Assembly: GCA_038845975.1 (NCBI GenBank)
Contig: JAWBQF010000013.1
Coordinates: 1-64,000 of the forward strand
Length of the DNA: 64,000 nucleotides
From: Candidatus Methanomethylicia archaeon
GTDB taxonomy: Archaea; Thermoproteota; Methanomethylicia; CALHIW01
Direction of reading: 5' to 3'
Notes under the pieces: generated by a model
The model's database searches: none
Told to the model about the DNA's origin: nothing
The model's input: the letters and a program-made list of their open reading frames with translations, nothing else
Shown here: piece after piece, positions 10,080 through 63,790 of the stretch
Layout: each line of letters opens with the position of its first letter
How positions within the stretch are numbered: position 1 is the first letter of the stretch
Translations under genes and position numbers: made by a program

Positions 10080-10136
10080 GCAGGCTACCTATACTTACTA
10101 CTTGACTTAACTTATAAATATTTTTAAATCCTATGG

Positions 10137-10771
10137 GGCTTTGTTAACTTAGGCATGTTTATTACCTCTATTTTGGTATTGTGTTTCTATGAATTCCTTA
10201 GCTTTTATCTTTTCATTAATTCATGTTCCATTTATCATGTATGCTATTGATTTTATAAGCATTAATACATGTTCATTCTCCATTAATTCTAATTTCTAAA
10301 TTATATCATGTTTAAATTCAATATTTACATGATGCTTATAGTATTGTGTTCCGTCACTCAATACAATTATATTTGAGCCGTAAACAACTTTAATCTTTTT
10401 AAGAAGTGCCAATGATGTAAGTATATTTGAAACATCGTAAATCCATATATAAAAATCTTCCTAATAACGGCTTAAAACAACATACATAACCATACTCTTA
10501 GACTATACCTATAATAATATCATCAACCATAACAATCCTAACATATTTCTATCGAATTCAAATAGGAAGCTTAAGATAAACCACGATAATATAGAATAAC
10601 TCCTACAACAATAAACTAAATATCTGAAGCCATTCTAGAAGAACGAAAATATATAAGCAATAAACAACTAAAGTAAATGGAGTTCTCTCCCTAACAAACT
10701 TGATAACTTTAACCATAAACACACCATAAATAGGGGGCGAACTCCCAAATAAATCTAAAGTTAACAAAGTC
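10137..10771 (-). mobile_element. Decayed IS6-family element, group A copy 1
   Basis: TIRs GGCTTTGTTAACTT / AAGTTAACAAAGTC. Remnant peptides VKVIKFVRERTP, RIVMVDD and IIVLSDGTQYY. Homologous to 38253-38938, 40255-40877 and 58665-58870. Confidence 0.75.
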
Positions 10772-11040
10772 TCCTACAGATACTATTAGCTTTAAATACG
10801 AAAACACATATAGTTAATGGTTTAAGCTCATAGATGATTCAATGTATTCTCAGGATTAAATATAAATTCATTCAGAGTAAGTTCTAGACTTATATCGAGG
10901 TTTACTGTAACTGAGAGATTATCTGAAATACTGTATGTTAGTCTGTAAAGTTGCTTTATAGGTTAAACAGAGTGATTATGCTAATTTCTATACATATAGG
11001 TATTGTAGAGTGTATATGTTTGAAGTTGATGTAGATCTTG

Positions 11041-12054
11041 CTACCATTCAGTAAAATTTCCAATAATTGCTGTTGGTGTTAGCATATTCTTCATAGTTAG
11101 TAATCCAGGAGGAGATTTGTATACTTTAGGTATCATATTAATAACCATTGCTGCAGTAGCTATATCACCAGCTGTTCCATATTCATTTCTCCATTTAAGC
11201 TTTGGCTCTCCATCAATTATAACCTCATCATAATCTTCTCTTTCAGTAGATGCTAGTAGTTCAATTCTTATGAATTCACTACCATTAACATATCCTACAC
11301 CATATCCTTTTACACCACATACTTGACCTGGCTGGATTTTAAAGTATTGGGTTTCCATATATTTATCAGCTACTATAGGTTCTTGTCCTTCCTCGATTTT
11401 ATTTATCTTTACGTTTAGCATTGAGGCTAAGAGCATTATTGATTCTGCATATCCTACATGGGCTGTTATTTCTCCCTTAGATATTTTCTCCTGGAATTCC
11501 TGTACTGTCATGCTTAAACCGTACTTTTTCTGGAATGAATATCTTCTCCTTGATGCATTAATAGATCTAACAATATGAATTTTATTTATATTAATGCATA
11601 CTGAACTTAGAAATGCTGGTAGTGTATCAAATATAAATCCCGGATTAACACCAGTACCGAGAACTGTAACATTCTGCTTTTTTGCTGCTTCATCAATTAG
11701 GAATGCAAGTTCAGGATATCTATACCATGGATAAGCAAGGGTTTCCGATGTAGAGATAATATCTGCTCCAGCTTTAATACATTTAACAATTTGAGGATAT
11801 ATTTCGTCAAGATATGTAGTTGTTGAATGTAGAACAACATCAGCTTCACGTAGAATATCCATAGCATTATCTTCATGAATAACCTGTATGCCTAAACTTC
11901 TACCTAAACCTATAATTTCACCTATATCTCTACCTACTTTATCTGGAGATATATCAATACCTCCAATTAATCTAATACCTGACTTTATAGTAACATACTT
12001 AGCTATTAAACTACCTATAGGGCCAAGACCATAGATAACAACCTGAATACTCAT
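11041..12054 (-). CDS. 2,4-diaminopentanoate dehydrogenase-like / DapB-related NAD(P)-dependent amine dehydrogenase
   Basis: YGLGPIG Rossmann motif, GTGVNPGF, HVGYAES, GDIATAA. Confidence 0.8.
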   Translation of the reverse strand: MSIQVVIYGLGPIGSLIAKYVTIKSGIRLIGGIDISPDKVGRDIGEIIGLGRSLGIQVIHEDNAMDILREADVVLHSTTTYLDEIYPQIVKCIKAGADIISTSETLAYPWYRYPELAFLIDEAAKKQNVTVLGTGVNPGFIFDTLPAFLSSVCININKIHIVRSINASRRRYSFQKKYGLSMTVQEFQEKISKGEITAHVGYAESIMLLASMLNVKINKIEEGQEPIVADKYMETQYFKIQPGQVCGVKGYGVGYVNGSEFIRIELLASTEREDYDEVIIDGEPKLKWRNEYGTAGDIATAAMVINMIPKVYKSPPGLLTMKNMLTPTAIIGNFTEW

Positions 12055-12375
12055 GGAGTCACCAAGACAGTTAAAAAACAGCATTATATAACTCTTTCTA
12101 AGAGATAGGTTTAAAATTTAAGATTTGTTTATTTTCTTTATCTTAACTAGGTAATTTAACTGCTTAAAATTAGTAAACCCCATTAAAACTTTGTTTATTT
12201 TGAATAATTCCAATCTCAAGATTAACTTAACGATTTATCCAACAATATATAATCCTCCTATTTACGTTTCATGAAGTACATGTTTAAAGCTTCAAAGACG
12301 TAATGTGGAAGCATTATAGGTTTATTTATGCTAGTTTATCCCATTATAGAGGATGAGCTTATCCAGTTTAACAAT

Positions 12376-12458
12376 GAATTTATCTGAAAACTCTTAAATA
12401 TTGTTAAAGCTTAATTAGGTTAATAATTAACTACCAATTAATTATGAGTTTCAGATTC
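12376..12458. mobile_element. ~85-bp MITE copy 1
   Basis: Ends GAATTTATCTGAAAACTC / GAGTTTCAGATTC. The interior is similar to 29810-29899. Confidence 0.55.
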
Positions 12459-12638
12459 AATAAATGTTGTAGACGAACTCAGCTTCTATTAGTTAATCTA
12501 TAGCATAAAAGTAAATAGAATTGCTATAAGCAATAGTTAAGATCATTGAGATAACATAATCAAAGCCGTTGAATAATTAGTAACTCCAACAAGATTAATT
12601 CAAAACATTACTGCTTACTATTGGATTTTAAGAATTGA

Positions 12639-16005: not shown

Positions 16006-16251
16006 CTAAACACCTTACATAAACTATTAGATATAGTCACTTAATAATCCAATATATAAATCTTACCTATAATGTGATGTTTACGAGCTTAAACACCTAT
16101 TAATCTAAGTAATGCAGCTCTAATTTTAGCATTTAATTAACCTACTTTACGGCATGAAAACCATAGCTTCATAGATATTTAATTCCTACTACTATAAAGT
16201 AGATTTTTGAAATCATCCATTTTATATTTAAGGTTTCTGAGTACTTACCAT

Positions 16252-16550
16252 GATACTGTTACTTTTAGGTTTTGAGTAGGCTTTAGGAAGCTATCTCTTG
16301 GAGGTGATTTTTGTAGATAATCTTCTCAAAGCCCTTAGAGATAAAGGAGTTTTCAGATAAGGTTTCGCTTAAAGAAGTTGAGAGCATACATCCTATACAT
16401 GGCTGGGCTTAGCTATAGGGATATAGCTTACGTCTATCGGATCGTTGATTTAAGCCACGTATCAGTATGACGTTGGGTTCAAAAGATTGAAAGCATAAGG
16501 TTTGATGTGAAGCCAAAGCATAGAAAACTTCCCACCACAACAGCAACATA
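16252..16550 (+). mobile_element. Internally deleted IS6-family element, group B copy 1
   Basis: The first ~265 bp are highly similar to 47567-47833, including TIR GATACTGTTACTTTTAG. It then jumps to sequence resembling 48224-48250; the right TIR is lost. Confidence 0.8.
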
Positions 16551-16784: not shown

Positions 16785-18704
16785 TCACAGCTTTCTTAGA
16801 GAGAAAGACACTATCAATACTATTAATAGTGCACTTACAAGCTTAATAGTTATATCTGGACTCATAAGAATTAAAACCCCGAGAACTGGGCAAATCCATA
16901 ATATAATCGATTTTAGGGAACTCATATTTATTCCGAATGTTATAAATCTTATTGATAATCCTATGGATGCTGTAAAGATAAGGAATCCGTAGAGTAAACC
17001 TGAAAGACTTATAGATAAGACTTCTGGGAAAGCTAGAAATGCAAATGGAAATAGGAATACTGGTAAGGAGATTATGATTGAGTTGTACATAGTTCTATAG
17101 AATGATCCCTCCGAAATCTTAGAGGCAACAGCAGCAGCTATAGAGGCTGGTGGTGAGTATTCAGCAATTACTGCAAGAATAAATGCGAAGAAGTGAGCTG
17201 CCCAAAGATTAAAACCTGCCTTAACCATTGCTGGAACGAAGAGTATAGATAGTGAAATATATGTTGCTGTTGGTGGAATACCGAGACCAATAATAATTCC
17301 AAATAAGTAGGCTGCAACTACTAGTAGTAGAGGGGATGCTTCAGCTAGATCAATTAGAGTCCAGCTTAAATCCTGTATTAAGCCAGTAGCTGTCATCATG
17401 TTTATCATAACTCCAAGTGTTGCAAGGAGAAGTGTAACATCAACAACCGAATTTACACCCTGACATATTCCATTCAAGATTGATTTCCCAAATTCTAATA
17501 GAAGAATCTTAAAGCTCCCATGTTTAATAATTACGTATATTATTTTCAGCACTACGATATAGATTATAAAGGATATCATAGAGTAATAGGACGCTGTTGG
17601 AAGCTCATATTGTAAATAACCTATAAAGTATACAAGCATTACCAATGCAATAATAAATCCCCCGAAATTTATGAATACTATTTTCTCAATAGGACTCCTA
17701 TTAACATCTATTGTTTTAGTGGATTTAATAAATTTTGAAGTAATTATGTATACACATAACCCTACTGATGCATAATATACGATTGCAGGTATAAGTGCAC
17801 GGGTAGCTACCTCCCAATAGGGAACTCCTATTGTTGCAGCCATAACGAATGCTGCTACACCCATTATAGGAGGCATTATCATACCGCCTAGTGAAGATGA
17901 AACCTCAATAGCTCCAGCATAGTTTGGATGAATACCTATTCTCTTCATTAAGGGTATTGTATAGCTCCCAGTAGTAGCTACATTAGCCGTTATACTACCA
18001 GTAACTGTCCCTACACAAGCACTGCTAATAACACTAATTTGAGGTATAAGTCTTGGAGACCTTACATAACCAATAATTAGCTTAACCATAGATTCAAGAA
18101 TACCAAAACCTATAAGTAGTCCTATAAGAATTAGGATTGGAGATACTGTTTGAACACCAATTATAGATAATGAGCCGAAAACACCGAATCCTTCCAACGT
18201 GTTTGATGTAATAAACCTAATATATGGAAGACCTAGATGAAAGAAGGGTTCAGGTAATAGCCTACCAATAAATGGAGTCGCATATATAAAGAAGAATATA
18301 TTTATATAGAAGAGAACTGGATGTATCCTTCTTGAAAACTCCATCACTAATAAAAGAATGAAAAGACCAATAGTTAAATCCATTATTGAGAATTCAGTAG
18401 ATGTTAACCAGAATATTCTTGAAAACTCTAAATTTAAGTAAAAACCTGAAAGAAATGGAAATATGATAAATATAAATGCTATTACAACATTTAATTTTCT
18501 ACCTAACCTCGGATATAGAGTATTATTTCTTCTATATTCATTAAGAAAGTATAGTGATAACAGTAAGGGTACTAGTTGAAATACAAGCTGTGTGCCACTT
18601 ATAAACGCTGTAACCATATATAGTAGGATTATACTGAAAATTAATATGGAAAACCCATAACTAAAAAAATTAAGGATTGATTTAGACTGCAATTTTCCAT
18701 TCAT
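16785..18704 (-). CDS. TAXI-TRAP fused 4TM/12TM permease
   Basis: GSITANVATTGSYTIPLMK, MPPIMG, GIPPTATY, SPP; multi-TM. Confidence 0.9.
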   Translation of the reverse strand: MNGKLQSKSILNFFSYGFSILIFSIILLYMVTAFISGTQLVFQLVPLLLSLYFLNEYRRNNTLYPRLGRKLNVVIAFIFIIFPFLSGFYLNLEFSRIFWLTSTEFSIMDLTIGLFILLLVMEFSRRIHPVLFYINIFFFIYATPFIGRLLPEPFFHLGLPYIRFITSNTLEGFGVFGSLSIIGVQTVSPILILIGLLIGFGILESMVKLIIGYVRSPRLIPQISVISSACVGTVTGSITANVATTGSYTIPLMKRIGIHPNYAGAIEVSSSLGGMIMPPIMGVAAFVMAATIGVPYWEVATRALIPAIVYYASVGLCVYIITSKFIKSTKTIDVNRSPIEKIVFINFGGFIIALVMLVYFIGYLQYELPTASYYSMISFIIYIVVLKIIYVIIKHGSFKILLLEFGKSILNGICQGVNSVVDVTLLLATLGVMINMMTATGLIQDLSWTLIDLAEASPLLLVVAAYLFGIIIGLGIPPTATYISLSILFVPAMVKAGFNLWAAHFFAFILAVIAEYSPPASIAAAVASKISEGSFYRTMYNSIIISLPVFLFPFAFLAFPEVLSISLSGLLYGFLIFTASIGLSIRFITFGINMSSLKSIILWICPVLGVLILMSPDITIKLVSALLIVLIVSFSLRKL

Positions 18705-19818
18705 CCTTCCATGCACCATGCTCCTTAAGAATCTTAGCTAAACCAGGATGAACAGGTAGATCCGGCCATAAGGAGATTGCTTTCACCTGAAATCCAATAG
18801 GATCTTTAGCAAACTCTGAGAAGTACGCATGTTTAGCTTTAAGCTCATCCTTAGCATTAATCATCCCCTTAATCATAAGATAAACAGCTTCCTCAGGTAT
18901 AACTTTTGGATGAGTATGCCAGCCACCTACTAGAATTAATCCAAAAATCTCCTTCACACCAGTACCGAAAGGATCAGGAACCCAGCTGAATGGATATTTT
19001 GCCTTAGTAATCTTATCTATATCTTCAGGAAGAGGATTTATAACTGTAAGCTTCATCTTAGCTAATATCTCCGCAGCTTGGGGTGCAGGTACTCCAGCAC
19101 CAGTCCAAATCCCAATGGCAACAACATCCTCTCTCTTCAAAGCATCTCCTTGAAGAGCAAAATCGATCTCTACATGTGTAGGCTTAACACCTATAAGTGA
19201 GAATACCTTCATATACCATGCATGTGAAGCCCACTTCGCAGTAAGTAATGCTATTTTCCTACCATTAAGATCTCTCCATGAGTTTAAACCATACTTCTCC
19301 TTCAATTCAGGTGTAGTAGCTATATGGAATGTGTTAGTATATACGTGGATCGTATGTATAGGTGTTACTGCACCAGATGGAAGAGTATCAAATGGTGCTT
19401 CACGATTCATAGCGCTAATCATTGATGTTGGATCAGTATATGCAACCTCCAAGTTTCCTGCAGCAAACTCCTTTATATTAACTGGCCAACCACCAACAGG
19501 ATAAACTGAGATATCAATGCCGGGAACAGATTTCCTAATAACATCCGCTATCAGAGACCCTACAGCATAACCTACACTACCAGCCTCTGTGGTTCCTAGC
19601 CTCCAGGCTTTTGGACCTGGAACTGTTGTTGGTATAGTTACAGGTGTTGTAGGAGTTATTATTGGTGAGGTAGCAGTTATAGTTTTTGTCTCTGTTCTAA
19701 CTATGGTTACCGTAGTTGTAGATACTGTTAAACTACTAGTAAAATATCCAACAATAACTCCAACTATAAGGAAGACCACAATTAATATAGATAGTGTTTT
19801 TTTACTGCTTACACTCAT
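18682..19818 (-). CDS. TAXI family TRAP solute-binding protein with Thr/Pro-rich linker
   Basis: LGTTEAGSVGY and C-terminal PVHPG motif; N-terminal TM anchor; adjacent to the permease. Confidence 0.88.
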   Translation of the reverse strand: MSVSSKKTLSILIVVFLIVGVIVGYFTSSLTVSTTTVTIVRTETKTITATSPIITPTTPVTIPTTVPGPKAWRLGTTEAGSVGYAVGSLIADVIRKSVPGIDISVYPVGGWPVNIKEFAAGNLEVAYTDPTSMISAMNREAPFDTLPSGAVTPIHTIHVYTNTFHIATTPELKEKYGLNSWRDLNGRKIALLTAKWASHAWYMKVFSLIGVKPTHVEIDFALQGDALKREDVVAIGIWTGAGVPAPQAAEILAKMKLTVINPLPEDIDKITKAKYPFSWVPDPFGTGVKEIFGLILVGGWHTHPKVIPEEAVYLMIKGMINAKDELKAKHAYFSEFAKDPIGFQVKAISLWPDLPVHPGLAKILKEHGAWKDEWKIAV

Positions 19819-19875
19819 TTATAATCCCTCACTATTGTACATTACAAATTTATAAATTTTTAGGATAATAGATTT

Positions 19876-20716
19876 CGTCCTATCAACTTAGGTAAAATGC
19901 CTCTAGAAATAGAGCATTGATTTTAAGATGGGATAATTATGGCTTAGTAATAATCTATCTATTTAATTTTAAGGTGGTTATGACCTACAATAATGCTTAA
20001 CTATTCTATTGTAAGCAACATAATGTATATGAGAGATAATACTATCAATAAACATAGTGAATAAAGATAGTCTTGAGTTTAAAGTTGGTATGATGCCTAG
20101 AAACTGTCCTTAGAAGTTTGTTTGGAATGTTCTTACTCTGTATTAATATGATTTGTAGTTATGGATTTCTTAATAGAATTAGGAAAGTAACTCATATTTG
20201 TATTCAGGTCTTATTAGACTATTTCTCATGTAGTTTTGAGGAAAATAGATCTTATATGCTAGGTATAGTTATGAGTATGTAGATGGATTTATGAGCTATC
20301 ACTGATTATCCCATTGGTTAGGAATATGTATTGATGAATATAGGGTTCATTTACTGTATGGACTGTACTTAAAAGTAGGAAATAGCCTATACATCATTTC
20401 CACATAGCGGTTTGATACATATAGATTCTAATGGTTTAGTGTTAAATGTTATTGCTAAATCATCTAAATATTATACAGCTAATGTTTAGACATTGAATAG
20501 ATGTAAGATGCTAAGAGATTAACAGGTATTTGAGAATTTATGAAGAAACATAAGTAGATGTAAAACATTAGATTATGCTAGGAGCTAATATGGTATACGT
20601 AACATATTACAACTGGATAATACCTCACATCGCCAAGAATCAAAATGTAAAAATGGATAAAATGAAGACCTAACAAGAGAGTAATAAGATGATGTAAATT
20701 TAACGTTGACAGAACA
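19876..20716 (+). mobile_element. Highly decayed IS6-family element (group C) filling a divergent intergenic region
   Basis: Ends GTCCTATCAACTTA (19877) and TAACGTTGACAGAAC (20701-20715). C-terminal IS6-type motif YYNWIIPH at ~20606-20629. Confidence 0.6.
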
Positions 20717-20760
20717 TTAAAGGAGGTATAAATTTATATTTTCCTCTAAAATTAATTGTT

Positions 20761-21198
20761 ATGTTCTACTTTGATGATTTTAAAATTGGAGATAAGTTTA
20801 CTTCGAGACCACGAATATTAACTTCTACGGATATAGATTTATTTACCGGAATTACTGGTGCTGTAAATCCTCTTTTTCTAAGTGATGAGGTAGCTAGGAA
20901 GAGAGGATTTGAAGGAAGAATTGCGCCTGGACTTCTAGTTTTAAGTGTTGCTGTAGGACTTCTTTATCAACTTGGATTATTTGATAATATCATTGCCTTG
21001 CTAGGTATTAATGATTTGAAATTTACATCACCGGTTAGGCCAGGTGATGAAGTTAATGCTGAATGTGAAGTTGTTGAAAAGAAGGAAGTGAAGACAGGTG
21101 ATAGAGGTATAGTAAGGCTTAAAATAACTTGTAGAAACATAACTAGAAACTCTATTGGTATAGATGGGTTCATTACTCTTCTTTATCCTAAAAAATGA
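20761..21198 (+). CDS. MaoC-family (R)-specific enoyl-CoA hydratase/dehydratase
   Basis: YFDDFKIGD, GAVNPLF, RIAPG and FTSPVRPGD hot-dog motifs. Confidence 0.88.
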   Translation: MFYFDDFKIGDKFTSRPRILTSTDIDLFTGITGAVNPLFLSDEVARKRGFEGRIAPGLLVLSVAVGLLYQLGLFDNIIALLGINDLKFTSPVRPGDEVNAECEVVEKKEVKTGDRGIVRLKITCRNITRNSIGIDGFITLLYPKK

Positions 21199-28625: not shown

Positions 28626-28904
28626 CCTTTATATTATAATTTTTATAGTATATAAAGTTTTCTTCAAAATAATATATCCTATCAACTTTGGCTTTAAACT
28701 ATTTCTTATTTTACAGATAGTAGTATCTTCTATACTATGTAAAATTATTTTTAATTTTCTGCTATTGAGTTTGCCCTTACTGATTTTCTATACATTAAAT
28801 ACTAAACTCATTGCAAAACCCTCAGGTATATCATTCACTATATACTGAAAACGGCTTGACTTTAAAATTTTAGGATTAGGAAGTCTTCACTCCTTTTTTT
28901 TAAT

Positions 28905-29712: not shown

Positions 29713-29809
29713 TACTGTTAGGTATAGACATATATTGTTTACATATTTCTCTATGTATTTGTAGCTATAGTATATCATTGATGTTCTAGTTTCACAATTG
29801 TTATCTAGT

Positions 29810-46245: not shown

Positions 46246-47505
46246 TCACCATGTATAGAAGCCTTCCCCAGTCTTTTTACCTAGTTTTCCCCTACTGATA
46301 AACTCTAGAAGTAGTTGATCAGGCTCATAGAAAATACCATAATCCTCCTTTACAGTTTTCCTCTTATCCCTTAAAATGTTTACAATATTATCTAGGCCAT
46401 ATTCATCAGCTATCTCTAGGAGACCCTTCGGGAAATTGTATCCAAGCTTTAGAGAAGTATCTATTTCTTTAGCTGTAGATACATTATTTCTAACTAGCCA
46501 AGCGGATAAGTTAACTGCTGGAGCTAATACTTGTATTGGATCTATTTTTTCACCGGCATCTTTAGGAATCTCTACTTTAACCCATTGACCTGGCTTAGGA
46601 TAATCATAGAATCCCTTACCTGTCTTAACTCCAAGCCATCCCTTACCATGGTATTCCATTGAAAGCTTTAATGCATATTCACGTATTTTAACGTATTCCT
46701 CATGAGGCTCCCATTCAGGATATTTATTACGCATCTCATTAAAGTATGTATTTTCGCCGATCTCTATATCTATTGCTCCAGTAAAATCTACTAGTTCAAA
46801 TGGACCCATAGGTAGGTTAAGCTTATATCTAAATGCTGAATCTATTTCTACTGGTTTAGCTTCTCCTCTTTGAATCATTGCAAAGGCTTCATATCTAATA
46901 GTTCTATAAACTCTATTAGCTATGAATCCTCTTATATCCTTATTAACAAGTATAGGTTCCTTCCCTAATTTTTGGGCTAGCTTAAAAGCTACCTCAGCAG
47001 TTTCATTACTTGTATATTTACACTTCACAATCTCTATAAGCCTCATTACTTGAGGAGGGTTAAACCAATGCATACCTACAACTTTATCCGGTCTATTGGT
47101 AGCTTCAGCCATAGGCGTAATTGGTAAGCCACTAGTATTGGAAGCTATTACTGCGTGAAATGGAGCATGTTCATCAACATCTTTAAAGGTCTGAATTTTA
47201 AGGTCTAGTCTTTCAGGTATGGCTTCAATAATGAAGTCAGCGTTATTAACAGCCTCTCTAACATTAACATAGGTTGAAATTCTACTTAGTGTCGAATCAG
47301 CATCTACCCTACTAATTCTCCCGCGCTCAATAAGCTTATCTAAACTCCACTTTATCTTCTCAATAGCTCTATTAAGTATTTCATGAGAAACATCAACTAA
47401 GTTGACACTGTATTTGTTCATAGCAAAAACTTGAGCGATACCGTGACCCATAATACCAGCACCAATAACAGAAACAGTTTTTAAATTTTCAAGCTTTAAG
47501 CCCAT
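46246..47505 (-). CDS. 3-hydroxyacyl-CoA dehydrogenase with duplicated C-terminal domain
   Basis: GAGIMGHGIA, EAIPE, SNTS, HWFNPP, GFIANR, PMGPF. Confidence 0.95.
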   Translation of the reverse strand: MGLKLENLKTVSVIGAGIMGHGIAQVFAMNKYSVNLVDVSHEILNRAIEKIKWSLDKLIERGRISRVDADSTLSRISTYVNVREAVNNADFIIEAIPERLDLKIQTFKDVDEHAPFHAVIASNTSGLPITPMAEATNRPDKVVGMHWFNPPQVMRLIEIVKCKYTSNETAEVAFKLAQKLGKEPILVNKDIRGFIANRVYRTIRYEAFAMIQRGEAKPVEIDSAFRYKLNLPMGPFELVDFTGAIDIEIGENTYFNEMRNKYPEWEPHEEYVKIREYALKLSMEYHGKGWLGVKTGKGFYDYPKPGQWVKVEIPKDAGEKIDPIQVLAPAVNLSAWLVRNNVSTAKEIDTSLKLGYNFPKGLLEIADEYGLDNIVNILRDKRKTVKEDYGIFYEPDQLLLEFISRGKLGKKTGEGFYTW

Positions 47506-47566
47506 AATTAATAACACCCATTCCGGCTATTAAAGCTTAGAATAAAAACTTTTCTATTATTAACTT

Positions 47567-48270
47567 GATACTGTTACTTTTAGATTTTTGAGTAGGCTTT
47601 AGGAAGCTATCTCTTGGAGGTGATTTTTGTAGATAGACTTCTTAAAGCCCTGAGGGATAGAGGTATTTTCAGGCGTAATAAGGTTTCGCTTAAAAGAAGC
47701 TGAGGGCATGTATTCTCTACATGGCTTAGTTATAGGGATATTGCTACGTCTGTCGGGTTGTTGATGTGAGCTATGTATCTGTATGGTGTTGGATTCAGAA
47801 GATTGAGGGAGTAAGAATTGATGTGAAGCCAATAGGGGGATGGTAGCTATTGATGAGATGAAGCTGAGGAGGCATCATTTCTATTATGGGCTGCAATAGA
47901 TGTTAAGACCAAGAGCTTCCAGCAATGAGGGCTTCATGGCGGAGAAGCATACTGGATGCAGATCTCTTCCTGAAGCAAGTCCTTAAGGCATGTGTTAATA
48001 AGCCTCTAATCCTAGTAGGGGCCATGGTATCCCCAGGCATTACATAACCATGGTTTAAGATGGAGGCATCAAACCTTCGCTAGGAATACGATAGAGAGAT
48101 GGTTTCGAACACTTAAGGATCGAACAAAAGATTCTACACAACTTCAGACAAGAAACTCATAAAGATCAACCTATTCCTAAACTTCTTCATACTCTGGTAT
48201 AACTGGATAAGACCTCATCAAACCATAGGAAAACCACCAGCAATAACATAAACCTAAAAGTAACAGTATA
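47567..48270 (+). mobile_element. Decayed IS6-family element, group B copy 2
   Basis: TIRs ATACTGTTACTTTTAG / CTAAAAGTAACAGTAT. Remnants VAIDE, WAAIDV, GPWY, RNTIERWFRTLKDRT, WYNWIRPHQT. Confidence 0.88.
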
Positions 48271-49147: not shown

Positions 49148-49541
49148 TAGAGAAATTATCTGGAAACCATTTAAATTTTCTCTTAGGATTGCATGGAGTT
49201 TAAATGTTTCTGGTTATGGGATTCAAGCTTCTAGTTCCATCCAAGTGAAGACTTCTAGAATTGAGGACCTACCTATACAGTTGTATAATGAAGCCATAAA
49301 GTATTGATGGGGCTAGTAATGAATGCGACTCTAAATATCTCATCTTAGATGATTTTGGGGGGTTAAGTATGGTAGGTCTAAGAGCCTGGGGTTACAGATA
49401 ATTCAACATATAACACAAAGAAGATAAATGTTGAAAGCCTCATAGGAAATATAATACTAAAGTAGGGTAATAAATATGCTTAAGTTTACAGAATCCATGT
49501 GCTATACGCTAAGTTTAAATATTGTTATTCTTAGTGATGTT

Positions 49542-54676: not shown

Positions 54677-56107
54677 TTAGGGTTTTAGTTCTGGCCATCC
54701 TTCCTTTTCCTCCCATGTAGGCATAGGTATAGGATTAGAAGTAGCAAACTCAAATGGATAGATAACAGCGTAAACCAGCTTATTACCCTCCCCTCTCTGC
54801 CACTGTACTACAGGATTTATGGATCCAATCTGTTTAGCTGGATTCTCAGGATCCACCTTAAATCTTGACTTCACACAGTAAAAGTCAAGCTGCTTAGCAG
54901 CTTGTATCAGCTTATCAGGATTAAGACTTTGAGCGGTTTCTATACATTTAGCCGCAACAAGTACTGATATAGCTCCATATCCTGTATAGGCTGAGGGTCT
55001 TCCAGTTCCTCCAAGCTCATAATAGAGTTTTACAAGCTCATCACTTGTAGGACCATAATACTCCTTCCCCTCCTTAGCTGCTATAACATCCCACTTACAT
55101 TCAGGCTCCCATGTTGTTTCACCCATAAAGCCAACAGCCCACTTACCAAGATCACTAAATTCAGGTTTTGCAACCGTTACTTGTATTATTACCCATTTAA
55201 TATTTATTCTTAAATCTCTTAATTGTGTAGCTATTAAATATCCATCCTTGTAGTGGCCACCAACACAAAGTATATCTGGTTTAAGAGCTGCTATTTCTCT
55301 AAGCATTGGCGTAGCATCAGTAATATCTGGAGGATAAGACCTATCATAAACCACTTCAAAACCGAAATTCTTCGTCTTTATACGAGCTGATTCACCTAGA
55401 CTTCTACCCCATTCATCATCCTTAAATATTATAGCAACCTTCTTCGCTCCAGGATCTACTTCCTTAATCATAGTGAATGGGGTTTGCCAATAGTGTATTA
55501 CTGCGAATCCATGTGTAGAAACCATGTATTTAAATCCTTGCTGATATAGGGCATCAGAACTACCTCCAAAGTTTATTGAAAACATCTTATACTTTTCAGT
55601 TACTGGTGCTGTAGCCATAACAAATGTTGAGGCATATGGATGAATTACAATATGAACCTTATCCTCAGTAATAAGCTTCTCAACAAGCTTAACAGCATAA
55701 TCCCTCTTACTCTCACAATCATAGTATATTAGCTTTAACGGTACCTTCCTCCCCTTAAAGTTTACACCTCCATGATCATTAATCCATTTTACAGCACACT
55801 GTATACCCCTAAAGCTTGCAGCACCCTCAACAACCTGAGCACCACTTAGCTGTATTGCAACGCCTATACGTATCTCACTAGGAATCTCCTCAATCGGAGT
55901 TGTAGGTGTAGTTGGGGTAGGAGTTGTAGGGGTTGGAGTAGGAGGTGTGGTTGGTGTTGTGGGGGTGGTTGGAGTTGGTTTAGGGGAGGGGGATGTTGGA
56001 GATGGCGTAGGAGGAGTCATAACCATTGCTGCAGCCGCAATTATAGCTATAACAACAATAACAGCAATTATTATAGCTATAGTTTTAGATACCGCACGCG
56101 AGTACAT
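54677..56107 (-). CDS. LivK-type substrate-binding protein with Pro/Thr repeat linker
   Basis: IRIG...LSG, INDHGGV, YYDCES; PT-rich linker encoded at ~55895-56017. Confidence 0.9.
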   Translation of the reverse strand: MYSRAVSKTIAIIIAVIVVIAIIAAAAMVMTPPTPSPTSPSPKPTPTTPTTPTTPPTPTPTTPTPTTPTTPIEEIPSEIRIGVAIQLSGAQVVEGAASFRGIQCAVKWINDHGGVNFKGRKVPLKLIYYDCESKRDYAVKLVEKLITEDKVHIVIHPYASTFVMATAPVTEKYKMFSINFGGSSDALYQQGFKYMVSTHGFAVIHYWQTPFTMIKEVDPGAKKVAIIFKDDEWGRSLGESARIKTKNFGFEVVYDRSYPPDITDATPMLREIAALKPDILCVGGHYKDGYLIATQLRDLRINIKWVIIQVTVAKPEFSDLGKWAVGFMGETTWEPECKWDVIAAKEGKEYYGPTSDELVKLYYELGGTGRPSAYTGYGAISVLVAAKCIETAQSLNPDKLIQAAKQLDFYCVKSRFKVDPENPAKQIGSINPVVQWQRGEGNKLVYAVIYPFEFATSNPIPMPTWEEKEGWPELKP

Positions 56108-56160: not shown

Positions 56161-56711
56161 AGACGTATCAACTTATAGTTTAAATATTACCTAATAACTA
56201 CTACATTGAATCTAACAGCTTTACAAACTAAGTTTTACTTGAATCTTCTTAAATGGAATGTGAAAATGCTTTATAGATTTATTAATGAATTCATTACAAA
56301 ATTAAATATTAGCTTTCTTTACAAAAGATGTTTTAAGTGTTGTTTAAATCTAGCTGTTTGGTTGTTAACTAGCCTTTGTAATTTAACTAGGCTATGTTAA
56401 GCTGTTAATAGCTGACTTAAGATCAGCTAAAATGATATGCATATTACTCCTTCAAATATTATTCACATAGTGGAATCTTAATAGTTAATTATTGACATAA
56501 ATACTTTCAACATACAATAAATAAATGATATAATCCCCATTAAATCTAGGAATCTACTTATATATGGTTATGATCAATATGGAGTTCTGTAATCTTAAAC
56601 TATAAGGTAAGCTATTAAAGTCTACAAATACGAATAGTTGTTCACCAGAGAATTCACAACTACAAACTTAGTATAGAGGGGAAATCTAGTCAAACCAAAG
56701 TTGACAAACAT
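56161..56711. mobile_element. Probable ancient IS6-derived relic bounded by TIR-like ends
   Basis: GACGTATCAACTTA at 56162 and AAAGTTGACAAAC at 56697-56709 in inverted orientation. The interior has no recognisable transposase. Confidence 0.4.
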
Positions 56712-56775: not shown

Positions 56776-58290
56776 ATGGATATCTATGAGAGGATTAAGT
56801 GTAAGGATCTTTTAGATGTTGTTTTACCCCCTACCGAAGTAGTGAAAAAACATATACCTAGGAAAGGAACTATTGCTTGTAGTGGAATGGCGCAGATGAG
56901 TACTCCTAAAGTAGTTCCTATATTTCTCGCTAAGTATGTGGAGGAGACAGGTGAAGAGTTTAAACTGAATATCTATACTAGTGGTTCAGCAGCTCCTGAA
57001 CTTGATGGAGTATTAGCAAGAGTTAATGCTATCAATAGACGGTATGTTTACCAAAACAACCCTATTGTCAGGGAGAAAATAAATAGGGGGATAACTCACT
57101 ACTATGATATATGGCTTGGAGAGTTCCCCCGTCAGTTAAAGTACGGTTTTCTAAATGATGTTTGCGGCCCAATAGATGTAGCAATAATAGAGGCGGTAAG
57201 TATAAGGGAGGACGGGTTCATTATCCCTTCATTATCTCTTGATAATATACCTTTATATATGCAGCTTGCTAAGAAAGTTATTATTGAGCTAAATACTGCT
57301 AAACCTGAGAACCTTGAGGGAATACATGACGTATATTCTCCCCAGCCAGGAACCCCTATACCTATAGTTAGAGTTAATCAAAGAATTGGAGTTCCATATG
57401 TTCCATGCGATCCTAAAAAGATAGTAGCTATAGTTCCATCTGAAGCTCTTGAAAAGGAAATATTCTACGGAAAGCCAACAGTTATTGAGGAGAAAATAGT
57501 AGATAACTTATTCAACTTCCTACTAGATGAAGTTAAAAAAGGAAAAATATCTAAAAGCCTCTATCCTCTCCAAACAGGTATAGGTCCAATTGGAGATACT
57601 GTAGCTGCCAAGTTAATAGATTCTGACTTCACAGATTTAGAAATATGGACTGAAGTTGCTCAAGCAGGCTATCTAGATGCTTTAGATTCAGATAAGGTAA
57701 AATCATTAAGTACATCAGTGTTCATGATTCCCCCTGAAGATAAAAAGCATGGAGAAAGATTTTTGGAAAATCTAGCAGAATATAAGAAGTCTATAGTATT
57801 AAGACCTCTTGAAATTACAAACAACTCAGAACTAATAACCAGACTTAACCTTATAGCAATGAATCAAGCTATAGAAATCGATATTTACGGAAATGTAAAT
57901 ATGACACATGTACTTGGAAGTAGCGTAGTTAACGGTGTTGGAGGTTCAGGAGAATTTGCAAGATCCTCCTATCTCTCTATATTCCTACTCTCATCTACAG
58001 CTAGAGATAATAAAATTTCCAGAATTGTTCCAATGACACCCCATGTAGATGTAACAGATCATGATGTTGATGTTATAGTAACGGAGCATGGATGGGCTGA
58101 TCTTAGAGGATTATCTCCAAGAGAAAGAGCTAAGGAAATAATAGAGAAATGCTCCTCACCGGAATATAAAGATGAACTATGGAAATACTTTAATGAAGCA
58201 TGTAGAAAAGTTGGAGGACATATACCACACATTCTCTCTAAAGCCTTCTCATTCCATGAAAGACTAATAGAAACAGGAAGTATGAAGTAA
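56776..58290 (+). CDS. Acetyl-CoA hydrolase/succinyl-CoA:acetate CoA-transferase family (class I)
   Basis: LQTGIG, WTEV, EIDIYGNVN, NGVGGSGEF, VTEHGWADLRGLSP. Confidence 0.92.
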   Translation: MDIYERIKCKDLLDVVLPPTEVVKKHIPRKGTIACSGMAQMSTPKVVPIFLAKYVEETGEEFKLNIYTSGSAAPELDGVLARVNAINRRYVYQNNPIVREKINRGITHYYDIWLGEFPRQLKYGFLNDVCGPIDVAIIEAVSIREDGFIIPSLSLDNIPLYMQLAKKVIIELNTAKPENLEGIHDVYSPQPGTPIPIVRVNQRIGVPYVPCDPKKIVAIVPSEALEKEIFYGKPTVIEEKIVDNLFNFLLDEVKKGKISKSLYPLQTGIGPIGDTVAAKLIDSDFTDLEIWTEVAQAGYLDALDSDKVKSLSTSVFMIPPEDKKHGERFLENLAEYKKSIVLRPLEITNNSELITRLNLIAMNQAIEIDIYGNVNMTHVLGSSVVNGVGGSGEFARSSYLSIFLLSSTARDNKISRIVPMTPHVDVTDHDVDVIVTEHGWADLRGLSPRERAKEIIEKCSSPEYKDELWKYFNEACRKVGGHIPHILSKAFSFHERLIETGSMK

Positions 58291-58664: not shown

Positions 58665-58870
58665 CGCCTTGTAAGCTTTAGCTTTATTTAGAAACTTTCC
58701 CCCTTATTTATGGTGGCAATATAGCTAGAGTTATTAGATTATAGGGGAAGCTTCACATACCCTAGTTGTATCTATATATTTGTTTATTTAGATGATTTCA
58801 GATATTTTAAGCTTATTGTAGAGTTATGCATCCATGTATGGTTTATCTTAAGCTATTCGAATCTATGGGA
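58665..58870 (+). mobile_element. IS6-family group A end fragment (copy 4)
   Basis: GCCTTGTAAGCTTTAGCTTTATTTAG... matches the reverse complement of the right ends of copies 1-3. Confidence 0.6.
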
Positions 58871-59016
58871 AATGTTAGGATTAATTGTTAATAATATTCC
58901 TAATAGGTAGATTCTAAAGGTAAGATTACTGCTCTTATATTCTATTGAATAATTGTTCACCATATTGACTTGATTTACATGATATAGAAATCATTACAAA
59001 TCTATGAGGGGCATAA

Positions 59017-60814: not shown

Positions 60815-60822
60815 AATCCCAC

Positions 60823-61083: not shown

Positions 61084-62324
61084 TATTTCACCTCCTTTAG
61101 ATAAGCATCAACAAGTTCCTTAACCCTATCAGCTATGAAATCTGTTTCATAAATATAGTCTCTACCATAAATCTCTAGTCTTATAGGTAGATCTTTAAGG
61201 CCTCTTCTTATTATTTCATGTGTTTCAGCCTCCTTATTACCTGCTAGGAGAATAACTACTGGAAATCCGGGTTTATCCTTAAGCATTTCATTTAATGCTT
61301 TAACAATAGCATGACCGTGATGCCACTGCTCCTGACTTGCAAGTGTAGACCCAATTAAAACATATCCAACTACTCCAGGCTGGGAAAGTATTGCTTTAAC
61401 AACTCTATAAACCTTTGATGCTGGCGGATCTCCGCTTGTATCTGCATAATTCGCTATTTTGATACCTCTTTTAATTAAAGCATCTGCTGCAAGCATGGCT
61501 CCACCCCCACCAATACCGTGAAATCCTACACAACCGCTAGTATCTTGAACTAACTGTATGAAGTATCCTGTTCCACGCGGATCATTCTCCTCATAACTCC
61601 AAATTCTCTTTTCAATCTCAGTAAATTCTCTACCAATATCTCTAGGAGCTTTAATTTCTGGATGTCTATATAGGGAATTATCATCAATTGTTATTCTACA
61701 ATCAGCAGCAACCAATTCACCACTACTAGTTAATACTAGTGGGTTTATTTCAGCAATTGTTGCATCATAATCTTTAGATAGCTTAAATAACTTACATGCA
61801 GTATCAGTTACCATATTAACTATGTTATCACTAAGCTGGAAAGCTGAAAGCTCCTTTTTAACATTTTCAATATTAAACCCGCTTATGGGATTAATAGTTA
61901 TGCTCCTAATCTTCTCAGGACTTCTAGAAGCTACTTCCTCTATATCTACACCCCCCTCAATACTAAATATTAATGTTTGAGCTCTTACTCTATATGAATC
62001 ATTAACAATTAACCCAAGATAGAATTCATGTTTAACATCTAGTTTCTCCTCTATTAGAATCTTATCAACTTTAAAACCCCTAATATTGGATCCTAAAAGA
62101 CTTCGAGCAGTTTCTTTAACTTCCAAATTGTTTGATGCTATTTTTATCCCTCCAGCTTTAAAACGTCCAGTAATATGTATCTGAGCCTTTACCATAACTG
62201 GATATTTAACTCTAAATGATACTTCACTAGCCTCCTCAAATGTACTGGCAACAAAGCCATTAGGAATCTTTATGCCATACATCTCAAGTAAACGCTTACC
62301 CTGATATTCAAGAAGACGGGCCAA
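61083..62324 (-). CDS. Divergent acid:CoA ligase beta subunit (ATP-grasp, ACL/Ccs-like substrate domain)
   Basis: LLEYQGK, KAQ..GRFKAGGI, EINPL; substrate domain GIGGGGAML, ANYADTSGDPP, GSTLASQ. Confidence 0.85.
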   Translation of the reverse strand: MARLLEYQGKRLLEMYGIKIPNGFVASTFEEASEVSFRVKYPVMVKAQIHITGRFKAGGIKIASNNLEVKETARSLLGSNIRGFKVDKILIEEKLDVKHEFYLGLIVNDSYRVRAQTLIFSIEGGVDIEEVASRSPEKIRSITINPISGFNIENVKKELSAFQLSDNIVNMVTDTACKLFKLSKDYDATIAEINPLVLTSSGELVAADCRITIDDNSLYRHPEIKAPRDIGREFTEIEKRIWSYEENDPRGTGYFIQLVQDTSGCVGFHGIGGGGAMLAADALIKRGIKIANYADTSGDPPASKVYRVVKAILSQPGVVGYVLIGSTLASQEQWHHGHAIVKALNEMLKDKPGFPVVILLAGNKEAETHEIIRRGLKDLPIRLEIYGRDYIYETDFIADRVKELVDAYLKEVK

Positions 62325-62636
62325 GACATCACCTAGCGGAATAATACTGGAAACATTTATGTTTTTCGGGAGCTAATTAAACCTTTCAAGATATTGAATG
62401 ACTGAATAATTAAGTTTACAAGACCAGCATATTCTAGAAAATTTACCTAAATCGTTTACATAAAACAAATTATATATACTTCACATTTATACATTAAGTC
62501 TATCATGCACTAATCTGGTATTTACTTAGACAATCTTAACATATTTAGCTTAATTTAAACATTAATTATGCTGTATAGAGATTTAGATATTTTAATACTA
62601 CTATAAGTTTATTTATTAGCTTCATAATTTATAGTT

Positions 62637-63322
62637 ATGGTTGAAAACATTTTAGAGAAGGTTCTTAGAGAAGTGGAAGAGAATCCTGAACTAGCATATA
62701 AACTATACGATATATTAAGAAGAAAATTTGTAACTATAGAATTATTGGAGGAATACATGAAGAGGAGTGATAGAAGATTTAGTAAGCTATTAAGGGAGAT
62801 AAAAATATTGAGAAGGGATTGGGGCAAAAGATTTGAGGCTGTAGAGAAAACATTACTTGAGCATAGTAAAAGGCTTGAAGCAATAGAGAAAACATTACTT
62901 GAGCATACTAGGCTTATTGGTGAGGTTAGGGCTGGTATTGGCGGTATTACTAGGAGGCTTGGAATGGATTTGGAGAAGACAATTTTAAATGTATATAGGG
63001 ATGTATTGGAGGGACTAGGTATTAAGCCAGGCAAAGTTGAGAAGTTTATATATAAGGATATTGACGGTAAATACTATAAGAGGGGGCCAGAATAGATTTA
63101 GCTATATATGTTCATGATGAGGACGTATACTTCATGGAGGTTAAAAGCCTAATAGAAATAGATGATATTGAATGGTTTAACCAGAAATGCGAAATAGTAG
63201 AGAGAATAATAGGTAGAAAACCGAGAAGAAAAATAGCTATAGGAATAAACATGGTAAAGGAAGCATATGAAAGGACAAAAGAGCTAAACATAGAGGCAAT
63301 ATACGGAGCAATAATAGAATAG
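62637..63322 (+). pseudogene. Coiled-coil + PD-(D/E)XK (DUF3782-type) gene split by a single frameshift
   Basis: Coiled-coil with a 42-bp repeat. Adding one G to the G5 run at 63082-63086 joins KRG-ARIDLAIYVHDEDVYFMEVKS. Confidence 0.75.
62826..62909 (+). repeat. Tandem 42-bp (14-aa) repeat x2
   Basis: KRFEAVEKTLLEHS / KRLEAIEKTLLEHT with shared TAGAGAAAACATTACTTGAGCATA. Confidence 0.85.
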
Positions 63323-63790
63323 CTACCATAGTGAATGAATTTAGACCGTTTATGTAGCTTATAGGCTTCCTTGATGGTCTAATTGTTTTTTCTACCTTAT
63401 CGTACTTTTAAAGGGATACAGCTAGAGTATTAGGTAGGTATTTAGGTGTAAAATTATGATTTAGGCTTCCATCAACTTTACTCTATTGTTATGGAGATTA
63501 ATTATTTTAAGTTAGATGAAAGCTTGTAGAGCTAATGGAAGAATAGTACTCATAAATGAATCTGAAAAGTTTCAGGATAATATTGAGAAGAATAATAGCA
63601 TTAAAGAATATAAATGATTAAATGAATATAGATTCTATAGTTTAACGCTGAATTCAGATATACTAGATATTATTTAGAGTGTATAGTTTTAATTCTAGCT
63701 ATTAAATAGATAAAAGGATAAGTAGAGTTAAGGTTTACGAGGTAATTAATAGCTTAGGAAGCTTTATTAGATAGCAGTTATTGTGTACTT

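Follow-up and report, generated by a model that had tools for sequence, protein, structure and literature searches.

Transposition of the decayed IS6-type insertion sequences of a Candidatus Methanomethylicia archaeon was aimed at promoters. Among the copies that keep their target site duplication (TSD), 22 of 23 have a promoter on exactly one side, 18 nt (±1) from the element tip. An IS5-like control family in the same genome is blank in this respect, and relatives in metagenomes behave alike. Promoter-targeted transposition, which an earlier note on this DNA had proposed, is thus strongly supported. A promoter with TFB and TBP bound to it was most likely the guide, a reading to which we give an even chance and in which the contact with the transposase is predicted.

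Elements, families, and host promoters

The archaeon is an uncultured hot-spring dweller, and it carries hundreds of decayed IS6-type elements whose tips are docked at gene TATA boxes, i.e., stand at a fixed distance from them. The window analysed here comprises 64,000 nucleotides (positions 1-64,000 of contig JAWBQF010000013.1, assembly GCA_038845975.1), and genome-wide counts refer to the whole 2.77 Mb assembly. Elements of the window were assigned to two families, A and B, by nhmmer models. Promoters were scored in bits with a BRE+TATA matrix trained on the genome-wide IS6 flanks; for gene starts, a crude longest-ORF rule was applied. Ahead of 2421 ORF starts the matrix peaks at 28-29 nt (-28/-29) and at -37/-38, which shows that the docked motif is the ordinary promoter of the host. 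The background rate of the motif outside long ORFs is 0.0069 per position. The genome encodes TBP and two TFBs.

The elements probably belong, as relics, to a divergent clade of the IS6 family. According to the accessible part of a review (PMC7986276), this family has lengths of 700-890 bp, inverted repeats of 15-20 bp, 8-bp repeats, and a cointegrate mechanism. Our elements have short terminal inverted repeats (TIRs), one ORF, and lengths within the ~700-890 bp range; they resemble IS26, IS257, and ISC774 in their ~710-750 bp, their single DDE transposase of ~228 residues, and their 8-bp duplication. The latter, defined as an 8-bp repeat abutting the tips with at most one mismatch, is kept in 23 of the 58 full-length copies of family A, the only copies considered for this count, and in 17 of 27 full-length metagenome copies with both flanks. 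Family A (720-bp model) has the tips GGCTTTGTTAACTT[A/T]AG at both ends and family B (708-bp model) the tips GATACTGTTACTTTTAG; the two share ~34% identity over the sole aligned stretch of 74 residues. The alignment of the 228-aa transposase spans the IS6 model from one end to the other and leaves just a tail of ~29 residues, with no obvious tethering domain, and D74, D132, and E160 are invariant across 7 transposase sequences. Scores with curated IS6 models fall below the cut-offs in an intact relative, P0002, which matches NF033587 over 2-197 of 202 positions (E 5.7e-14), but with 52 bits against a cut-off of 125, and has no Pfam match. A family A fragment scores 27.5 bits with IS6 models, and a family B-like fragment 55.8 bits with NF033587 and 27.9 bits with PF13610 (cut-off 27).

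Element ends in the window

All 16 pairs of tips and TATA boxes listed in the earlier note hold, the top matrix score (5.1-10.8 bits) falling exactly at the claimed spacing of 28-31 nt to the TIR-core G. The two ends described there as having no clear TATA box were confirmed as such: the best score at 48270 is only 2.9 bits, and 38253 has no motif at docking distance, its nearest promoter motif being ~33 nt from the tip. Other claims had to be revised. None of the IS6 copies of the window is intact, all being frameshifted relics, as is every copy examined in the assembly. The proposed three IS6 groups reduce to two verified families, A and B, and a third that is TIR-like only. To take the docking of 10 of the 12 IS6 ends of the window as a rule was an overstatement, since genome-wide around half of the ends are docked, which is the share predicted if each insertion gives one docked end.

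Family A is represented in the window by nhmmer matches at 10137-10771, 38253-38938, and 40255-40877 on the reverse strand, and at 58666-58930 on the forward strand. The relic at 10137-10771, also matched with P0002 by tblastn (E 3e-24), has an internal deletion (model positions 141-214 are absent) and no TSD. Both its tips are docked, to a left-pointing BRE+TATA at 10111-10124 on the reverse strand (first T at 10118, 18 nt from the tip; 7.6 bits) and to a right-pointing one at 10785-10798 on the forward strand (first T at 10791; 5.1 bits). The full-length relic at 38253-38938 is docked at its right tip (TATA at 38957) and undocked at its left one. The relic at 40255-40877, amid divergent genes, is again docked at both tips without a TSD: on one side to the promoter of an acyl-CoA dehydrogenase gene at 39003-40208 (BRE+TATA at 40229-40242, reverse strand; first T at 40236; 10.8 bits), on the other to that of a luciferase-like monooxygenase gene at 40925-41992 (40890-40903, forward strand; first T at 40896; 8.9 bits). 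The match at 58666-58930 is a right-end fragment (model positions 428-719) docked by its tip at 58666 (TATA at 58646; 8.7 bits). Family B has two nhmmer matches, both on the forward strand. One is a left-end fragment at 16252-16520 (model positions 1-265), whose tip at 16252 faces a left-pointing BRE+TATA at 16225-16238 on the reverse strand (first T at 16232; 6.4 bits). The other, full length at 47567-48270 (model positions 1-707), is undocked on the right and docked on the left to the promoter of a 3-hydroxyacyl-CoA dehydrogenase gene at 46246-47517 (47541-47554, reverse strand; first T at 47548; 9.1 bits).

The third element, at 19876-20716, and six solo motifs match neither nhmmer model and were identified by their TIR-like tips only. 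The former (tips GTTGATAGG / GTTGACAG) also has no protein similarity to families A or B. It is docked at both ends to promoters of real genes, those of an NMT1-like ORF at 18682-19818 (BRE+TATA at 19849-19862, reverse strand; first T at 19856; 8.8 bits) and of a MaoC-like ORF at 20761-21198 (20727-20740, forward strand; first T at 20733; 7.7 bits). The solo motifs are remnants with no recognisable body. Those at 28675-28715 and 32154-32194 are docked to the promoters of ORFs 27240-28625 (TATA at 28656; 9.6 bits) and 32249-33409 (TATA at 32213; 9.3 bits), that at 56161-56201 to the promoter of a binding-protein gene at 54677-56107 (TATA at 56143; 7.5 bits), and that at 63704-63744 to a TATA at 63763 (5.5 bits). 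By eye, the motifs with core G at 49484 and 56700 look like family A ends: the remnant at 49455-49495 resembles the left end and is docked (TATA at 49514; 7.3 bits), and that at 56671-56711 resembles the right end and is docked to the promoter of an acetyl-CoA hydrolase/transferase gene at 56776-58290 (TATA at 56730; 8.7 bits). When all 47 AAGTTDAY sites on both strands of the window are considered, a promoter motif stands 29-31 nt from the G in 11 of them, against 0-2 at other distances; the docked cases include two, 11025 and 63044, that had not been listed before. The control family is present as IS5-like relics on the forward strand at 28907-29712 (tips GAACTCATTGCAAAAC; not docked), 37278-38089, and 42734-43491.

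Docking across the genome

The distribution of distances between IS6 tips and promoters is not flat genome-wide. In family A (~720 bp), 146 of 268 ends have a BRE+TATA starting 16-20 nt past the tip, where ~9 were expected. The earlier note had put the element end ~18-19 nt from the TATA box, just upstream of the BRE and with the promoter pointing outward, and this agrees with a genome-wide peak at 18 nt (counts of 20, 120, and 25 at 17, 18, and 19 nt). Of 230 family A ends, 50 have a strict TTTAWA exactly 18 nt past the tip, other offsets giving 0-6 each. Matrices trained on left ends and applied to right ends, and vice versa, place the motif at 17-19 nt in 74 of 110 and 68 of 120 ends. In family B, 29 of 54 ends are docked, at 16-19 nt. 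The IS5-like family, for which no such spacing had been noticed, has a motif at 11-23 nt in 0 of 54 ends.

The association also appears from the side of the genes. Among 878 promoters of ORFs of at least 100 aa, 67 have a TIR-core G at -31 to -29 relative to the TATA box, 46 of them at -30, with ~1 at other offsets. An ORF of at least 60 aa starts 25-39 nt downstream of 63 of the 146 docked motifs; of the 122 undocked ends, 100 lack an ORF of this size within 120 nt. Counting against the association, 47 of the 146 docked motifs also have none within that distance.

Target duplications

Copies that keep their TSD are not placed at random, as they would be if the pattern reflected only events after insertion. 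The 23 such copies of family A comprise 12 docked on the left only, 10 on the right only, one on both sides, and none on neither; none of the 23 disrupts a gene. The other 35 of the 58 copies have flanks that are apparently randomly paired: 9 are docked at neither end, 17 at one, and 9 at both, against 8.75, 17.5, and 8.75 for random pairing of half-docked ends. Many copies without duplications are expected from replicative, cointegrate-type events, given the likeness to IS6. One family B copy with a TSD (C68) has, by eye, no motif at 18 nt.

Flank positions 1-12 are almost uninformative and the TSD bases are close to background composition, the determinant being one-sided and outside the TSD. 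The docking of TSD copies on one side, in either orientation, shows that the aim lay in the insertion step. With the usual 8-bp stagger, strand transfer took place at positions -18 to -11 relative to the first T of the TATA box, a few bases upstream of the BRE. Such a one-sided target site leaves each insertion with one tip docked at 18 nt (±1) and the other undocked.

Relatives in other genomes

The check in related genomes that the earlier note had suggested gave the same picture. On hot-spring metagenome contigs, 71 of 113 ends are docked at 17-19 nt, and 15 of 17 copies with a TSD are docked on one side. One intact 228-aa copy (L041), the only one to come with both flanks, keeps a TSD and has just one of its tips docked; one TSD locus, seen twice, is undocked. 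Among the tips of ISC774-type IS6 in genome G137, only 16 of 101 have a motif at 17-22 nt. This is a weak trend at best, and the trait is not general to archaeal IS6.

Mechanism and alternative explanations

All copies in this gene-dense genome are old relics, so that some selective filtering is possible. If insertion had been random and only copies sparing gene and promoter had survived, these would have piled up at the nearest permitted distance, with a lower bound just outside the BRE. Yet selection should leave a boundary with a tail instead of a peak of ±1 nt, harmless sites farther upstream are unoccupied, and none of the 23 TSD copies is undocked while the IS5-like relics of the same genome never dock; we find this explanation highly improbable. 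It is also very unlikely that new copies homed to the ends of existing ones and inherited the promoter link from a few founders. An inward-facing older tip beside an end is 6-8 nt off in 11 of 12 cases, and, according to how many mismatches are allowed, 5-8 of the 22 one-side-docked TSD copies abut an older tip at offset 8. However, the remaining 14-17 are docked even though their undocked side lacks an older tip at this offset, no TSD copy lies beside a promoterless end, and stacks of tips are equally explained by repeat hits at one promoter. The TATA boxes at both ends of several window copies could suggest outward promoters belonging to longer element ends. But the 8-bp duplications directly abut the GGC/GCC tips, with the TATA box beyond them and on one side only, which indicates that it is not borne by the element; similarity between copies ends at the tip, and most docked motifs serve host genes at normal promoter distance. 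We give this last reading next to no chance.

The choice of guide is less clear-cut. The TIR-binding domain of the transposase may have taken promoter DNA, by its sequence or shape, for an element end, with no host protein involved. In our own alignment of consensus sequences, 9 of the 12 positions of the TIR core GTTAACTTTAGA match BRE/TATA, so that the DNA-binding domain could read promoters directly, and the transposase has no extra domain. Insertion beside end-like sequences is known in other IS families, and IS26 prefers joining beside another IS26. Docked promoters are slightly more tip-like than other promoters (7.93 vs 7.36 of 12, p 0.004), but this excess arises only where tip and BRE coincide, tip-specific bases not being enriched over other promoters (T at -4, 0.23 vs 0.26; C at -1, 0.11 vs 0.14). 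The registers also differ, the TIR core starting at tip position 7 and the BRE at flank position 13, and flank positions 1-12 bear no likeness to the tip. Moreover, 62 of 127 right ends hold a promoter-like motif 18 nt inside the tip, yet the element's own motif never served as a target (0 of 326 ends), which target immunity could explain. When sites are chosen on TATA alone, the docked ones have the stronger BRE: A at -3 reaches 0.98, against 0.82 in other promoters, and G at -6 reaches 0.59, against 0.38, a difference that may partly stem from false promoters in the comparison set, as gene starts came from the longest-ORF rule. Direct reading of BRE/TATA by the transposase accounts for the observations roughly as well as TBP-TFB tethering or recognition of the bent complex. 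It is, in our judgement, a serious possibility that falls well short of even, and nearly as likely as guidance by TFB and TBP.

Under guidance by TFB and TBP, the transposase would measure its distance from the complex on the BRE side. The fuller version of this model, in which the small DDE transposase is guided by the TFB-TBP-promoter complex and, in virtually every transposition, inserts one turn of the helix upstream of the BRE, we hold to be slightly less probable than an even chance. The element inserted in either orientation, leaving promoter and gene whole and pointing outward. Later exchange between copies, by recombination or replicative cointegrate-type events, would reshuffle flanks and may have produced copies docked at both ends, such as those between divergent genes in the window, or at neither. 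Repeat hits on one promoter would stack a new copy against an older tip, with an 8-bp duplication between them.

Comparison with known systems

Tn7 at attTn7, recognised by TnsD, likewise has a one-sided determinant outside the duplicated bases, at a fixed distance and in a harmless spot; it differs in that the transposon encodes a protein devoted to target selection and that each genome offers a single site, unlike the relics, which have one small protein and hundreds of sites. The target of Ty3 is marked by Brf1, a TFB-like factor, with TBP in TFIIIB. Like the relics, Ty3 of yeast integrates at a set spacing from a promoter to which TBP is bound, where insertion is safe in a compact genome, according to the accessible part of one study (10.1101/2021.07.27.453949). 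It is an LTR retroelement with an integrase and targets Pol III genes, upstream of which it uses a narrow window; its contact with TFIIIB is shown by structure. The relics, in contrast, are DNA transposons found upstream of the BRE at ordinary gene promoters, and their contact with the factor is only proposed. TRE5-A of Dictyostelium integrates ~50 bp upstream of tRNA genes via the TFIIIC/IIIB complex, sparing genes in a dense genome, as described in the accessible parts of PMC3159450 and PMC5391098. The relic tip, ~47 bp (18 + 29) upstream of a leaderless start codon, is akin to this. TRE5-A is, however, a non-LTR retrotransposon, restricted to Pol III genes and with a window broader than ±1 nt. 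As in factor-tethered integration of the Ty3 and TRE5-A type, the distance here is fixed while the local target sequence is irrelevant.

Bacterial IS6 elements form hybrid promoters in which the element end gives a -35 box beside a resident -10, and these cases were seen after selection. Here, the target supplies the whole BRE+TATA and the spacing is fixed at insertion. Aimed target choice is not described in the accessible part of the IS6 review (PMC7986276), and the literature that we searched gave no description of promoter-aimed insertion of this kind.

Significance

Docking at promoters offers a safe harbour, from which the element spreads through a gene-dense genome and leaves its genes unbroken. 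If the proposed guidance is true, it would be the first prokaryotic counterpart of the TFIIIB-guided integration of Ty3 and TRE5-A, and the relics would mark ~8% of the gene promoters of an uncultured archaeon.

IS6-type relics in the genome

The assembly comprises 2.77 Mb in 76 contigs, with one TBP gene and two TFB genes that identify the organism as an archaeon. The window covers bases 1-64000 of contig C13 and has a G+C content of 35%. The sequencing runs containing DNA of this organism carry hot-spring metagenome labels, and the genes flanking elements in the window are those of ordinary metabolism (acyl-CoA dehydrogenase, luciferase-like monooxygenase, 3-hydroxyacyl-CoA dehydrogenase). 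No open frame of at least 90 aa is present in any of the IS6 copies of the window, which are members of large, old repeat families. Family A (model of 720 bp, both ends tipped GGCTTTGTTAACTT[A/T]AG) has 246 nhmmer matches genome-wide, 58 of them full length. All its copies, and even the family consensus, are frameshifted, the longest open stretch being 145 aa. An intact relative, used as protein query, had 105 matches in the genome, and all those covering most of the protein carry stop codons. Family B (model of 708 bp, tips GATACTGTTACTTTTAG) has 55 matches, and its identity with family A is around 34% over the sole 74-residue stretch that aligned.

The 145-aa fragment of family A and the fragments of family B weakly match the NCBIfam model for IS6 family transposases. 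The intact relative P0002, a 228-aa protein from a metagenome, is 63% identical to the family A fragment and aligns with this model from end to end (E = 5.7e-14, 52 bits for a cut-off of 125). Given these matches, the 8-bp target site duplications (TSD), the short inverted repeats, and the size, the two families make up a putative divergent clade of IS6. Searching the PDB with the sequence of P0002 gave no match at E up to 1, and its predicted structure, based on a 7-row alignment, has a mean pLDDT of 37.6, too low to be of use. Among species-representative genomes, a relative of the transposase was found in none except the window's own genome. The Pfam profile PF13610, searched in 40 relatives, identified only a different, larger type (open frame of about 340-385 aa) in three genomes, which we set aside as too distant and too few. 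The element at 19876-20716 and the six isolated tip-like motifs of the window are matched neither by the family models nor by the protein search, and are candidates recognized by their tip-like sequence.

Contigs often end inside copies of family A or B (e.g., C2:376, C19:236, C36:341, C40:312, and C15:178 in the window's own genome, G000), and these terminal fragments are the closest to the intact relative, with up to 78% identity. Given these many breaks inside copies, the youngest copies, which may be intact, are probably missing from the assembly.

The window contains other repeats. Three IS5-like relics (28907-29712, 37278-38089, and 42734-43491) have tips GAACTCATTGCAAAAC and, by eye, a DUF4096-type N-terminus. 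Their family has 63 nhmmer matches in the genome, all decayed and lacking promoter docking. A repeat of about 85 bp (12366-12463 and 29801-29903) has 29 genomic BLAST matches, one copy lying just past the right end of an IS5-like relic; it may be a MITE. Another of about 235 bp (1-237) recurs at 10 other places with 84-97% identity, in several cases close to a contig end. Rfam gave no match in the window.

Element tips lie at a fixed distance from host promoters

The earlier note had listed 16 pairs of an IS6-type tip and an outward-pointing TATA box in the window, and had proposed that transposition is guided by TBP and TFB. All 16 pairs were found at the distances it had counted, and the pattern extends to the whole genome. 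Two further motifs with the tip core AAGTTDAY, at 11025 and 63044, have a promoter motif at 32 and 29 nt from their G. Hereafter, an end is called docked when its tip lies about 18 nt from the first T of an outward-pointing host TATA box.

Ends of family A were anchored on the model, and we kept the 230 of 271 whose last 12 bases have at most 3 differences from the consensus. A strict TTTAWA starts exactly 18 nt past the tip in 50 of these, while each other offset up to 100 has between 0 and 6. Flank positions 13-24 read G-W-A-A-A-R-T-T-T-A-W-A, i.e., BRE and TATA, while positions 1-12 and 25-45 are near background. When matrices trained on left ends were applied to right ends, and vice versa, 74 of 110 and 68 of 120 ends were docked at 17-19 nt, with about one match at every other offset. 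Over five registers, 146 of 268 family A ends are docked, for about 9 predicted from a motif frequency of 0.0069 per position outside long ORFs. Docking at 16-19 nt was also found in 29 of the 54 family B ends. The IS5-like family of the same genome has no motif between 11 and 23 nt in any of its 54 ends. The peak of tip-to-TATA distances is thus present genome-wide in families A and B and missing in the IS5-like family, as the earlier note had seen for the few copies of the window.

The docked motif behaves as a host promoter. Upstream of the start codons of 2421 ORFs of at least 100 aa, the matrix derived from the flanks peaks at 28-29 nt, with a smaller peak at 37-38 nt, as archaeal genes that are leaderless or have short leaders should show. 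An ORF of at least 60 aa starts 25-39 nt downstream of 63 of the 146 docked motifs, and 100 of 122 undocked ends have no such ORF within 120 nt. Viewed from the genes, a tip core is found at -31 to -29 from the TATA in 67 of 878 promoters (46 at -30, and about one at other offsets). Hence, roughly 8% of the callable gene promoters have a docked relic.

Insertions are aimed rather than selected

Docking could result from aimed insertion or from the survival of harmless copies. Our key test was limited to full-length family A copies that keep their TSD, since both flanks then come from one insertion. Among the 23 copies with an 8-bp duplication (at most one mismatch), 12 are docked on the left only, 10 on the right only, one on both sides, and none is undocked. 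None of these insertions interrupts a gene. The duplication directly abuts the tip and the BRE begins a few bases further out, so the cuts fell at positions -18 and -11 relative to the first T of the TATA, whichever way round the element went in. This distribution of TSD copies rules out element-borne promoters and symmetric targets as reasons for docking at both ends. The 35 full-length copies lacking a TSD match a random pairing of ends of which half are docked: 9 are docked on neither side, 17 on one, and 9 on both, for 8.75, 17.5, and 8.75 expected. This random pairing of flanks explains copies of the window such as 40255-40877, which lies between divergent genes, has both ends docked, and lacks a duplication. 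If every insertion is aimed and yields one docked and one free end, the overall share of docked ends, about 54%, is as high as it can be. Selection acting alone predicts a boundary with a tail, whereas the counts observed at 17, 18, and 19 nt are 20, 120, and 25. With 22 of 23 TSD copies docked on exactly one side, the promoter-targeted transposition suggested by the earlier note is well supported by sequence evidence alone.

Promoter sites are re-used

In 11 of the 12 cases in which an older, inward-facing tip adjoins an end, the distance is 6-8 nt, and it is never 0. Of the 22 TSD copies docked on one side, 5 to 8 abut an older tip at offset 8, the number varying with the mismatches allowed; here, new copies landed at a previously used site and displaced the older one from the promoter. 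This could suggest homing to old ends, but the remaining 14-17 copies have no older tip at that offset, and such homing therefore cannot be the primary rule. On metagenome contigs, the loci L052 and L075 have copies in opposite orientation at one promoter site, which points to independent insertions or to an inversion of the element.

The right ends of family A (e.g., 10742-10771 and 38909-38938 in the window) carry a promoter-like motif of their own, TTTAGATTTATTT. In 62 of 127 copies, it begins exactly 18 nt inward of the transposase-side tip, just as the host promoter begins 18 nt outward. A motif likewise lies 16-18 nt inside one tip of the IS5-like family, and this arrangement may be a common design of IS. 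None of the 326 ends of families A and B has another tip at offset 0, i.e., the element's own promoter was not used as a target in that register, for about 10 cases expected from a rough estimate based on motif counts. Target immunity, or a promoter left unoccupied, may be the reason.

What guides the transposase

The sequences show where strand transfer took place relative to the BRE and TATA, that the element enters either way round, that each event yields one docked end, and that sites are re-used and genes spared. In the mechanism we propose, the agent recognizing the promoter would be the complex of TFB and TBP bound to it, acting as a tether for the transposase. Several observations favor such a tether. 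What determines the target is found on one side only and beyond the duplicated bases, which themselves have almost no sequence preference. One-sidedness is unusual for a two-fold symmetric transpososome that reads DNA by itself, and typical of tethered systems. When sites are chosen on the TATA alone, the BRE, which is the TFB site, is stronger at docked sites than at other promoters (A at -3: 0.98 vs 0.82; G at -6: 0.59 vs 0.38). By simple arithmetic, the centre of the TSD is about 10.5 bp, or one helical turn, upstream of that of the BRE. The element's unused internal motif argues in the same direction.

The transposase could instead read the DNA of the BRE and TATA directly. It is without a spare domain, and the tip core of the element, GTTAACTTTAGA, agrees with the consensus of BRE and TATA at 9 of 12 positions. 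However, the bases specific to the tip are not enriched at docked promoters, and the registers of tip core and BRE are 6 nt apart. We regard direct reading as possible but somewhat doubtful, and guidance by a TBP/TFB tether as an attractive hypothesis with about even chances of being right. In a predicted complex of the TFB core, TBP, and P0002, no supported contact was found, a result that counts neither way. Relics also occur near the genes of these factors, one of family B about 210 nt upstream of a TFB gene, and family A ends within about 200-650 nt of the TBP gene (C33:2232-3236 and C9:50235-50657 of G000). This proximity is probably a coincidence given the copy number.

Other populations and limits of the trait

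Scanning metagenome contigs with the transposase alignment gave 80 loci at 47-96% identity; this set contains duplicates, with at least four loci entered twice and several identical to copies of the window's genome. The motif is present at 17-19 nt in 71 of 113 ends (duplicates included). Duplications flank 17 copies; 15 of these have one docked side, and the other two are one undocked locus seen twice. Most independent cases come from a distinct subfamily with tips GTTTACAAAGCG. The sole intact 228-aa gene with both flanks, locus L041, has a TSD and is docked on one side. Docking hence recurs in related populations and at an intact copy. The copy on contig C19 is present in 17 DNA-type hot-spring runs, with no RNA run among those listed. 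In the contigs of four runs, those flanking it end inside the element tips, none spans the whole element, and no empty-site allele was seen, although contigs cannot show absence.

As a test of generality, we searched another genome (G137, complete, 2.69 Mb) for ISC774-type IS6 tips and their MITE-like derivatives, using 40 tip-holding regions that cover 795 kb and 101 of the 111 tips. With a matrix from another organism, the promoter motif was found in 16 of 101 tips at a distance of 17-22 nt, counted from where the search motif ends. About 6 are expected from neighbouring offsets, and this excess, perhaps twice the background, is at most a weak trend. Strong docking, as judged with this foreign matrix, thus marks the present clade and does not extend to archaeal IS6 as a whole.

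Significance

IS6 elements are usually regarded as having little target preference. To our knowledge, aimed, position-specific insertion at promoters is otherwise found only in eukaryotic retroelements at Pol III genes, such as Ty3 and TRE5-A. In our searches of the open-access full-text literature, no archaeal IS was described as aiming its insertions at promoters. The part of an IS6 review available to us (PMC7986276) describes, in bacteria, hybrid promoters made with a -35 box that lies in the element end, and that part describes no aimed target choice, whereas in families A and B the BRE and TATA lie in the host flank.

Our results show a DNA transposon that, in practically all of its insertions, struck a window of 1-2 nt lying upstream of ordinary archaeal promoters. 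The same targeting appears across several hot-spring populations and in two transposase lineages (around 34% identity over the one aligned stretch of 74 residues). The system lends itself to direct tests, since an intact transposase gene, the ends, and the target rule are all known. If the tether is real, transposition would be linked to the basal transcription machinery common to archaea and eukaryotes, and tools for safe-site insertion in archaea might be developed from it. Whether the transposase is tethered or reads the DNA itself, the relics provide a base-precise promoter map of an uncultured organism, and the targeting would explain how its compact genome accommodates hundreds of IS copies without visible damage to genes.
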